Positions 17,723 to 18,992 of a stretch of 44,592 nt of DNA are shown here, piece by piece. Under the pieces are notes generated by a model. The model was not told the origin of the DNA. It saw only the letters and a program-made list of their open reading frames with translations, and did not search any database. This stretch comes from Escherichia phage PSK8. The stretch lies in sequence record PP541515.1; one strand, 5' to 3'. The position numbers were made by a program, and so were the translations under genes. Position 1 is the stretch's first letter. Each line of letters opens with the position of its first letter.

Positions 17723-18004
17723 ATGATGGCTAATGAGTACAGCAATCAGCCTTTAACAGGCCGGTACGACAGAAAACAAGTACAACCAGTTAGTGAACAC
17801 TTAATGGTCCCAAGTGTTAACTCTAACATTGACCTATACAACCCAGCAAAACAAGCCAGTGTTATCAATGATACCACAAAGTCTGGCAAGCAACTTGGGG
17901 CTATGCTTGTAACAGAAATGGGTGTCCTGATGCTAGCTCGTGGAAGTGAACCCACAAGCAAGTGGGACCAGACAAAGACAGCAGAGATTATTGTTCCAGC
18001 CTAA
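17723..18004 (+). CDS. Hypothetical protein, paralog 1 of a tandem triplicated family
   Basis: ATG with AGGAG RBS; shares SGKQxGAM and ARGxxPxSKWD motifs with the next two ORFs. Confidence 0.55.
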   Translation: MMANEYSNQPLTGRYDRKQVQPVSEHLMVPSVNSNIDLYNPAKQASVINDTTKSGKQLGAMLVTEMGVLMLARGSEPTSKWDQTKTAEIIVPA

Positions 18005-18019
18005 TAAGAGGAGAAAGAT

Positions 18020-18307
18020 ATGCCGAAGTATGGAGATGCAAGTACTGTAACAGGTCAATCCTTCCGTGTTAAAGATGTTCAAACTATTGCAACTGCACTG
18101 CCATTACCTGTTGTAGCAGAAGCAGACCTTAAATCTAAAGCGCATCCAATTAACATCCACCATCTTTCTGGTAAACAAAAAGGTGCCATGGTCGCAGTAC
18201 AGAAGGTAGATGGGTCGCTATATATCGCTGTGGCACGAGATGCACTGCCTGAGTCACCTTGGGATGCCACGACCATGAATGTTGATGCTGTTACCCCAGC
18301 GGAGTAA
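18020..18307 (+). CDS. Hypothetical protein, paralog 2
   Basis: GAGGAG RBS; motifs LSGKQKGAMVAV and ARDALPESPWD. Confidence 0.6.
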   Translation: MPKYGDASTVTGQSFRVKDVQTIATALPLPVVAEADLKSKAHPINIHHLSGKQKGAMVAVQKVDGSLYIAVARDALPESPWDATTMNVDAVTPAE

Positions 18308-18992
18308 TACTATCGTGTTAGGTATTACAGGACAACGAGGCGTAAGCCACCGAGCTAAGGTTGCCACGGAAGTGGCTCCTATCGTTGACATCTCAGAAGT
18401 ATCTGACGTTAACTCTTATCTAAACCAAAAGTACCTATCAGGTAAACAGGAAGGCTATATTGTTCTTGCTAAGAAAGGCTCACGTCATTCATTTTATGCT
18501 GCAACAGGTTCTAAGCCAGAAGACAAGTGGCTGCCTTTAGAGCAAGCAATCTTGCCTGATTCAAGTACGTTAGAGCTAATTGACACCATCAATACTAAAG
18601 TTGCAAGTGCAAGCGACACTGTAGAGGTTAATGTAACAAAAGAGAGAACTGTGTGCATCCAGACACCTATGAAAGACCTAGCAGGTGATACAGTTTACCG
18701 GCAAGAATTGACTGCCAACATTAACCTAACCCTTAATGAAAATGGAAGCCCTAGCGATACTGTTAAATTAAACATATCAATCCCTAATTTGCCAGGAACA
18801 TCTAGTGGGTCTTACTATACAGTTGACAATGTGCTGTGTACTGCTTTTGGAGAAGACAGCCCTGTTGTTGCTAATATAGATGTTGATAAGGCTACTACTA
18901 ACTTGATTGCTGTTACACTCCGTAAGGAGACGGCAACAGATATCAAGCTGTCTCTGGTAATTAGGTGGTCAATGCCAGTGGAGGTAGTATAG
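18279..18992 (+). CDS. Hypothetical protein, paralog 3 with C-terminal extension (start uncertain; GTG 18315 possible)
   Basis: N-terminal region has LSGKQEGYIVLA and GSKPEDKW matching paralogs 1 and 2. Confidence 0.5.
   Translation: MLMLLPQRSNTIVLGITGQRGVSHRAKVATEVAPIVDISEVSDVNSYLNQKYLSGKQEGYIVLAKKGSRHSFYAATGSKPEDKWLPLEQAILPDSSTLELIDTINTKVASASDTVEVNVTKERTVCIQTPMKDLAGDTVYRQELTANINLTLNENGSPSDTVKLNISIPNLPGTSSGSYYTVDNVLCTAFGEDSPVVANIDVDKATTNLIAVTLRKETATDIKLSLVIRWSMPVEVV

Follow-up and report, generated by a model that had tools for sequence, protein, structure and literature searches.

Three tandem paralogues between the terminase and endolysin genes of Escherichia phage PSK8: a conserved SP6-like gene set with a possible role on the virion

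Why should a compact T7-like phage genome keep three related small genes side by side? The question is raised by a locus of Escherichia phage PSK8 (sequence record PP541515.1), of which we analysed one strand of a stretch of 44,592 nucleotides, referred to below as the window. Between the genes encoding the terminase TerL and an M15 endolysin, a first-pass annotation made from the letters had reported three consecutive open reading frames (ORFs) that share a module, and had interpreted them as a local duplication unusual in such genomes and as a sign of selection for diversification. The three ORFs are present at this location on the plus strand, and were named A, B and C. In this study, we compared their products with each other and with those of related phages. 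The comparison traces them to an old family of small proteins, and we propose, with slightly better than even confidence, that A, B and C are expressed late, enter the virion as accessory proteins and form an anchor-plus-display complex on the capsid surface.

Three genes, one common module

The three genes and the two parts of the product of gene C are as follows:

17726-18004, plus strand: gene A, 92 amino acids, module only; orthologue of K1E gp41, SP6 gp41 and Kp7 gp45
18020-18307, plus strand: gene B, 95 amino acids, module only; orthologue of K1E gp42, SP6 gp42 and Kp7 gp46
18315-18992, plus strand: gene C, 225 amino acids, N-terminal module and C-terminal beta-rich domain; GTG start
18318-18548, plus strand: putative N-terminal anchor module of C, residues ~2-78, module hidden Markov model (HMM) i-E 2e-22
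18585-18989, plus strand: C-terminal domain of C, ~135 amino acids, all-beta, variable, candidate "display" domain; matches no named family

The conserved blocks quoted in the first-pass annotation are all found in the translations: SGKQLGAMLV and ARGSEPTSKWD in A, SGKQKGAMVAV and ARDALPESPWD in B, and SGKQEGYIVLA and GSKPEDKWL in C. The module of ~90 amino acids proposed to be common to the three ORFs was borne out by pairwise and profile alignments, which gave similarities far above chance and a match to PHROG 2725 for all three. In BLASTP comparisons, A and B share 34% identity over 89 amino acids (E 2e-7), B and C 31% over 75 (E 7e-6) and A and C 31% over 49 (E 4e-5). Smith-Waterman alignments yielded z scores of 10.8 (A-B), 7.8 (B-C) and 5.5 (A-C) against 2000 shuffles, none of which reached the observed score. 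PHROG 2725 is matched over its positions 4-99 by A (E 3.5e-31), B (E 3.9e-42) and C (E 1.4e-14); C is also a full-length member of PHROG 32357 (E 5e-114), and its PHROG matches are 32357, 2725 and 27324 only. An HMM that we built for the module retrieved A (i-E 4.8e-20), B (i-E 3.5e-44) and C (i-E 2e-22) among the ORFs of the window and none other, the tailspikes and the adaptor included. A 145-sequence alignment of the module has invariant P, N, S, G, K, G and W columns; the invariant residues are the TG of an N-terminal arm, the P, the N, the SGK..G motif and the W, and this pattern (TG...P...N...SGKxxG...W) is present in A, B and C. Homologues of B (74 of ~95 amino acids) come from SP6-like phages and from metagenomes. 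A, B and C are thus true paralogues with one common module, and the observation of three tandem paralogues is confirmed as real and correctly described. The C-terminal extension attributed to the third ORF exists as well, its length being ~135 rather than ~150 amino acids.

Of the two adjacent ATG codons at the head of A, the second (17726) is the most likely start, because this codon lies 5 nt 3' of an AGGAG (17716-17720) and because relatives are annotated from it, as is the homologue of A in Escherichia phage mutPK1A2; the adjacent ATG at 17723 would give an alternative product of 93 amino acids. Gene A terminates in tandem TAA TAA codons. Gene B, which has a GAGGAG ribosome-binding site (RBS) at 18008-18013, shares its reading frame with A and begins 15 nt after it, the interval 18002-18019 consisting of TAA TAA and 9 nt that include the RBS. 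This boundary suggests that gene fission or fusion took place there, since uncultured-phage relatives have the modules in one ORF. Joining of A, B and C by readthrough or frameshifting was considered for PSK8 and rejected, as A ends in TAA TAA and every gene has its own RBS. Gene C has a GGAG at 18301-18304, 10 nt 5' of the GTG at 18315; this GTG was retained as the start because the homologues all begin with MLG(V/I)TGQR, and the homologues in mutPK1A2 and UTI89UKE2 are annotated from the equivalent codon. The longer ORF that opens at the in-frame ATG 18279 in the ORF list was discarded, that start being unsupported by the homologues.

Pfam and the PDB gave no relative of the module. Searching Pfam with A, B and C returned only noise at E <= 1, and when A-type, B and C sequences and the family profiles were compared with all PDB chains, the matches were limited to immunoglobulin (Ig) matches of the Klebsiella paralogues and noise. 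The core of the module is modelled well by AlphaFold2: block means of the predicted local distance difference test (pLDDT) score are 86-90 in the core of B (residues 31-80), and means over 10-residue blocks are 87-93 in C (residues 21-70).

An old set of genes, exchanged as alleles and fused into single chains

The interval 17572-19000 is 91.6% identical to mutPK1A2 over its full length and matches 77 phage records at the nucleotide level, nearly all of them Vectrevirus; by these matches, the window is from a Vectrevirus, in the K1E/K1-5-like branch of the SP6-like subfamily Molineuxvirinae. To determine how the gene set is distributed, the module HMM was run on the window and on 16 fetched loci, 15 from cultured phages (L001-L015) and one from a metagenome contig (L016). 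The order TerL, paralogues, endolysin is found in all 15 cultured-phage loci, and the short-short-long set is conserved, with 2-4 copies, in Vectrevirus, Zindervirus, Ulipvirus, Axomammavirus and Kp7-like Klebsiella phages. Three modules were counted in 12 of the 17 sequences. The fetched phages carry:

3 module copies, mostly short, short, long: mutPK1A2, vB_Ro_P3a, UTI89UKE2, CC1, CrRp3, Koku (Ulipvirus), Kenya-K30 (Zindervirus), pKP-M186-2.1, Kp7
3 module copies: PP1 (three short); SP6 (gp41, gp42 and gp42.3, the last a truncated 81-amino-acid module)
2 module copies: LL11, AAPEc6, Era103
4 module copies: Klebsiella phage S16c

A wider tblastn search with B detected 165 phage records (Escherichia, Klebsiella, Salmonella, Proteus, Pectobacterium, Vibrio, Pseudomonas and Edwardsiella phages). 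In seven three-gene phages, mean identity is 43% among the position-1 proteins and 48.5% among the position-2 proteins, whereas paralogues inside one phage share 24-37%. Gene positions 1 and 2 are therefore separate orthologous groups, and, as orthologues in different phages are closer than paralogues in the same phage, the duplication is old and the A/B split predates these genera. These results do not support the suggestion of a local duplication; the triplication is not recent either, nor is it unusual in this group of phages; the set is an ordinary conserved part of SP6-like genomes, of which near-identical copies exist in sequenced phages, and it is not new in PSK8. A remark in the annotation of LL11 already reads "most likely a duplication region". 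The gene set is under-annotated but already known, and is not a recent oddity.

The locus is nevertheless variable between close relatives. Compared with other Vectreviruses, TerL is 96-98% identical at the amino acid level, whereas A is either 97% (mutPK1A2) or ~50% identical, B either 93% (mutPK1A2) or 62-70%, and C either 90-93% or ~30%; mutPK1A2 gp49-51 are 97%, 93% and 90% identical to A, B and C. The allele types of A and B vary together, and the type of C is uncoupled from that of A/B, which fits a pair of co-adapted partners and an exchangeable display subunit. Between closely related alleles, the ratio of nonsynonymous to synonymous divergence (dN/dS) is 0.06 for A (against mutPK1A2), 0.10 for B and 0.12-0.18 for C, looser than for TerL (0.02-0.03); the three genes are clearly under purifying selection. 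Between the divergent A/B alleles, synonymous divergence (dS) is saturated, compared with 0.5-0.85 in the flanking TerL gene, indicating replacement of whole alleles by recombination and not rapid divergence in place. The idea of selection for diversification thus stands insofar as divergent alleles are distributed in a mosaic manner and the C-terminal domain is swapped, but the dN/dS values of 0.06-0.18 denote purifying selection. Mosaicism extends to the whole genome, which combines Vectrevirus lineages: the major capsid protein (MCP) gene (2894-4096) is closest to those of fTuEco01 and NIC06P3 (96%), A and B to those of mutPK1A2 (97% and 93%), and C to those of NIC06P3 and vB_Ro_P3a (93%).

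An exhaustive HMMER profile search identified dozens of proteins of 260-300 amino acids with three separate module matches each. In the profile search of a representative library, the Ig columns drew Ig-repeat giants, and only module-bearing matches were used. The fused proteins contain three tandem copies, each with a GD(K/R)/TGQ arm, the N, SGKxxG, the W and a C-terminal (I/V)TP(A/T). One of them, P0301 (279 amino acids, three modules), is encoded directly after TerL on the 27-kb T7-like contig L016 (Logan SRR26596553), on which T7-type genes for tail fibre, packaging and terminase are found as well; searches of viral and of metagenome contigs gave no genomic context for fused proteins, and an exact-sequence look-up gave it for P0301 only. 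P0301 is followed by two small ORFs, and the same contig encodes, at 11247-12416, a protein of 389 amino acids with three modules and an extra C-terminal domain of ~125 amino acids, so that one uncultured T7-like phage encodes two single-chain versions. In single chains, these two proteins reproduce the arrangement "A+B+(bare third)" and the arrangement "A+B+C with payload", respectively. With a fused protein as the tblastn query, the alignment runs colinearly across the A-B gene boundary of phages in which the genes are split; in K1E, which has two copies, the genes aligned are gp41 and gp42. By the logic of gene fusion, the single-chain forms suggest that the three modules assemble into one unit, and that the paralogues work together rather than being redundant, diversifying copies.

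Virion association and the candidate display complex

A pointer to where the proteins act comes from Klebsiella phage Kp7 (ON148527), in which gp45 (88 amino acids), gp46 (88 amino acids) and gp47 (178 amino acids) lie between TerL and an M15 endolysin in the same short, short, long order and with the same N-terminal module. GenBank labels gp45 and gp46 "minor capsid protein" and gp47 "minor capsid protein with Ig-domain". In a preprint, the three are reported among the bands of purified virions identified by sodium dodecyl sulphate polyacrylamide gel electrophoresis, mass spectrometry and BLAST, and are called minor capsid proteins (10.1101/2024.05.19.594906). Identity to the Kp7 proteins amounts to 43% for A against gp45 (E 1e-21) and 48% for B against gp46 (E 2e-17); for the N-terminal module of C it is 29-35% against gp46 and gp47. 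Incorporation of A, B and C into the PSK8 virion would thus be carried over from orthologues that are 43-48% identical for A and B. In the literature on virion proteomics of K1E, SP6, Erwinia and Pectobacterium relatives, we found nothing usable besides Kp7. The Kp7 capsid, tail and tail-fibre structures, from a phage carrying the same three-gene set, are PDB entries 7y3t, 7y22 and 7xyc; 7xyc is cited as unpublished in a 2026 preprint.

A profile search with the long paralogues showed that the same N-terminal module is joined to differing C-terminal domains in different phages. In ~55 Klebsiella-phage proteins the partner is an Ig_2/Ig_3 domain, one source using the name "Hoc-like head decoration"; among PDB chains, the Ig domain of these paralogues has a match in that of T5 pb10 (E 1.6e-10), and among PHROGs in Hoc-like head decoration families. 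In Erwinia phages the C-terminus is fibrous and coiled-coil and, as seen with the paralogue P0081, matches PHROG 4366 "head fiber protein" (E 4.5e-11), and S16c has a different C-terminal domain of 200 amino acids (PHROG 17779). C itself has full-length relatives, ~30% identical, in CrRp3, CC1, Koku, Kenya-K30 and M186-2.1; no Ig match was obtained for A, B or C in Pfam or PHROG, nor a match of C to the head-fibre PHROGs 4366 and 14753. The third paralogue's C-terminal domain is therefore swapped between phages. Ig and head-fibre partners are typical of head-surface proteins, which counts in favour of a capsid-surface location, and the dedicated late promoter, the good RBSs and the dN/dS values of 0.06-0.18 count for a virion accessory function.

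We propose the following sequence of events. Transcription from the late promoter at 17571-17593, described below, would give one mRNA spanning the lysis cassette as well as A, B and C. The products of A and B would then associate with the N-terminal module of C into a three-module base on the virion exterior, most likely a pseudo-threefold hetero-oligomer on the capsid surface with A and B as bare subunits; the conserved, poorly modelled N-terminal arms are candidate contacts. The base would present to the medium the single C-terminal beta-rich domain of C, at the place occupied in Klebsiella and Erwinia phages by Ig or head-fibre-like domains. The exposed domain probably binds surface glycans weakly or serves another accessory surface function; by analogy with pb10 and Hoc, it may act as a weak, multivalent adhesin, and the base might have a stabilising effect. 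Formation and stoichiometry of the hetero-oligomer, its location on the capsid rather than on the tail and the adhesive role of the C-terminal domain are parts of this proposal that we infer.

The capsid is not the only place where such a unit could sit. The module might dock on the tail adaptor or neck in the way tailspike N-termini do, making the unit a small accessory fibre beside the two tailspikes. The proximity of the tailspike genes speaks for this location, as do the structural matches of the module in BFVD, to an SGNH-esterase-domain protein and to a protein labelled "tail fiber" (E 1.4e-4 and 5.5e-4); overall, we regard a tail or neck fibre as unlikely. We give a smaller chance to the possibility that A, B and C are non-structural late proteins engaged in lysis control, host-surface modification or superinfection exclusion, and that the presence of their orthologues in the Kp7 virion is adventitious. 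The three genes do lie with the lysis cassette between the same two promoters, the endolysin gene starts within the stop codon of C, and detection in the virion was reported for the relative Kp7 and not for PSK8. However, the Kp7 preprint places gp45, gp46 and gp47 in gel bands of purified virions, direct reading of A, B and C revealed no signal peptide or transmembrane segment, the fusion partners in relatives are display domains of extracellular type (Ig, head-fibre-like, beta-sandwich), and on contig L016 the fused gene follows TerL.

The explanation offered by the first-pass annotation, taken as a recent local triplication whose redundant copies diverge under positive selection, accounts for the tandem arrangement and for a locus far more variable between close relatives than TerL. 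It is largely refuted by the position-specific orthology, A and B orthologues being separately conserved across genera and closer to each other than paralogues within a genome; the dN/dS values, the saturated dS between alleles against 0.5-0.85 in TerL, and the single-chain three-module forms, which argue for cooperation, leave it very improbable. The least credible reading, to which we assign practically no chance, is the database label "acetyl-CoA acetyltransferase" (thiolase). Its support is the label itself, which PHROG 2725 and many RefSeq and GenBank records carry. A and B have 92-95 amino acids compared with ~390 for a thiolase, Pfam finds no thiolase domain and the fold search finds no thiolase. 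Thiolases use catalytic cysteines, and A and B contain no cysteine. The label is an annotation error, which has spread through PHROG 2725 and dozens of phage records, for instance NC_047889 (gp49 and gp50), NC_047769, NC_048064 and NC_007637.

Several observations weigh against the capsid-surface complex that we favour. Support for its presence in virions comes from a single preprint and from the GenBank annotation of Kp7, whose gp45 and gp46 share 43-48% identity with A and B. The Kp7 capsid entry 7y3t was matched solely through its MCP sequence (7 chains), and when Kp7 gp45 and the family profiles were compared with the PDB, no chain matched the module, and thus no structure there puts the family on a capsid. 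The BFVD matches fit a tail location equally well, and the C-terminal domain is a low-confidence part of the AlphaFold2 model of C. The A/B type does not track MCP similarity: the MCP of mutPK1A2 is only 87% identical to that of PSK8, for an A that is 97% identical. Identity leaves the one-to-one mapping of genes A, B and C on modules 1, 2 and 3 of the fused proteins ambiguous. Finally, phages with two modules (K1E, LL11, AAPEc6, Era103) and with four (S16c) exist, and the composition of the unit is therefore flexible rather than a universal, strict 1:1:1 trimer.

How do A, B and C compare with known systems? The direct orthologues, K1E gp41/42, SP6 gp41/42/42.3 and mutPK1A2 gp49-51, have the same locus order; K1E, LL11 and AAPEc6 differ in having two copies only. 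Kp7 gp47 differs from C of PSK8 in its C-terminal domain, which is Ig_2/Ig_3 in the former and an unrelated beta-rich domain of ~135 amino acids in the latter. T5 pb10 and T4 Hoc resemble the proposed complex in combining a small capsid-binding domain with an exposed, exchangeable domain. However, pb10 and Hoc are single proteins and not a set of three paralogues (PMC5292684, PMC10385173), neither the pb10 N-domain nor the Hoc capsid-binding domain has sequence or fold similarity to the anchor module of A, B and C, and C of PSK8, unlike pb10 and Hoc, is devoid of an Ig domain, the Ig match (8zvi/5lxk) belonging to the Klebsiella-phage paralogues. Judged by these comparisons, A, B and C do not belong to the Hoc/pb10 family, although they may function as a decoration that combines anchor and display parts. 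For the trimeric cement proteins lambda gpD and P74-26 gp87 and the heterotrimeric herpesvirus triplex, the analogy may be functional only, in that a three-subunit unit could occupy local threefold sites in a shell of HK97 fold; the structure search found no match of the module to the beta-tulip fold of gpD/gp87-type cement, and A, B and C do not belong to that family. That a T7-like podophage can have a small additional capsid protein is shown by P2_50 of Vibrio phage Peru-2, an abundant minor capsid protein of ~12 kDa located on the pentons, which is described as forming homopentamers of an Ig-like beta-sandwich, is encoded outside the main structural block and is proposed to aid surface adhesion (10.64898/2026.06.25.734500). 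It is likened to A, B and C by description only, and the family profiles gave no P2_50-like match among PDB chains.

Phages of the K1E/K1-5/SP6 type are in wide use, both as candidates for therapy and as models of capsule-targeting infection, and drawings usually show their particles as bare T7-like heads. If the proposed complex exists, as a conserved and strongly expressed set of virion proteins, these phages would possess a second, tail-independent surface, with possible effects on adsorption, on binding to mucus or capsule, and on the stability and immunogenicity of the particle, and A-B-C could serve as a display scaffold. Our model for the locus, in which the three modules would make up one unit and the third subunit would carry the payload, draws attention to a mis-annotated family with an anchor that has no confident structural relative, an apparent three-module unit and an exchangeable payload domain.

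Promoter, leader and neighbouring genes

The gene order around the set is TerL, A, B, C, endolysin, holin/spanin-like ORFs, promoter and two tailspike genes, with the following features:

15670-17571: TerL, Pfam Terminase-T7_RNaseH-like
17571-17593, plus strand: SP6/K1E-type phage RNA polymerase promoter, ATTACTGGACACTATAGAAGGAG, whose first base is the last one of the TerL stop codon
17664-17683, plus strand: hairpin with an 8-bp GC-rich stem, GGGTGTAC-TCCT-GTACACCC, followed by a pyrimidine-rich tract; from a terminator-like scan
18992-19336, plus strand: M15 endolysin, Peptidase_M15_3 (PF08291, E 1e-32), directly 3' of C
20014-21905 and 21991-23514: two tailspike-like genes, Beta_helix, pectate-lyase-like

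The phage promoter and structured leader that had been noted before the genes were both recovered, the former as an exact match to the SP6-type core and the latter as a conserved hairpin. The core, ACACTATAGAAGG, is matched at 17579-17591; the window contains 15 such matches, compared with 2.6 expected by chance, and the promoter at 17571-17593 is kept in 12 related phages. Transcription would start at G17587, leaving a leader of 139 nt before gene A. The hairpin at 17664-17683 is part of the minimum free energy fold of this leader, which as a whole is not unusually stable (z = -1.4). Read from the alignment, its stem is kept by different sequences in Koku, Kp7, SP6 and PP1, and MK373773 and MK373771 annotate it as a "terminator"; its function could be RNA processing, stabilisation or partial termination. 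Located 5' of the hairpin, at 17622-17650, is a conserved stretch with a palindromic sequence, ATATAGGTTAACCTAGGTTATATAGG. Across Vectrevirus, promoter and leader are the best-conserved DNA of the locus, most records matching query positions 1-235 only: the leader is the most conserved part, whereas the genes behind it are the most variable.

At the other end of the set, the GTG start codon of the endolysin gene overlaps the TAG stop codon of C (TAGTG, 18990-18994), and the annotation of mutPK1A2 has the identical 1-nt overlap between the C homologue and the endolysin. This overlap suggests that translation of the endolysin is coupled to that of gene C. As the next phage promoter is located only at 19913-19932, the endolysin is predicted to be co-transcribed with A, B and C. 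Downstream of the endolysin, small ORFs of holin-like and spanin-like type make up a lysis cassette at 19330-19881: an ORF of 43 amino acids, a hydrophobic holin-like ORF of 49 amino acids at 19445-19594, and, reminiscent of an i-spanin/o-spanin pair, two overlapping, out-of-frame ORFs at 19587-19808 and 19621-19881, of which the latter has a lipobox-like LTTSGC. The promoter at 19913-19932 is another exact SP6-type match and precedes the two consecutive tailspike-like genes. The second of these (21991-23514) is, by Pfam, not an endosialidase; the pair reproduces the dual-tailspike layout typical of K1-5-like phages.

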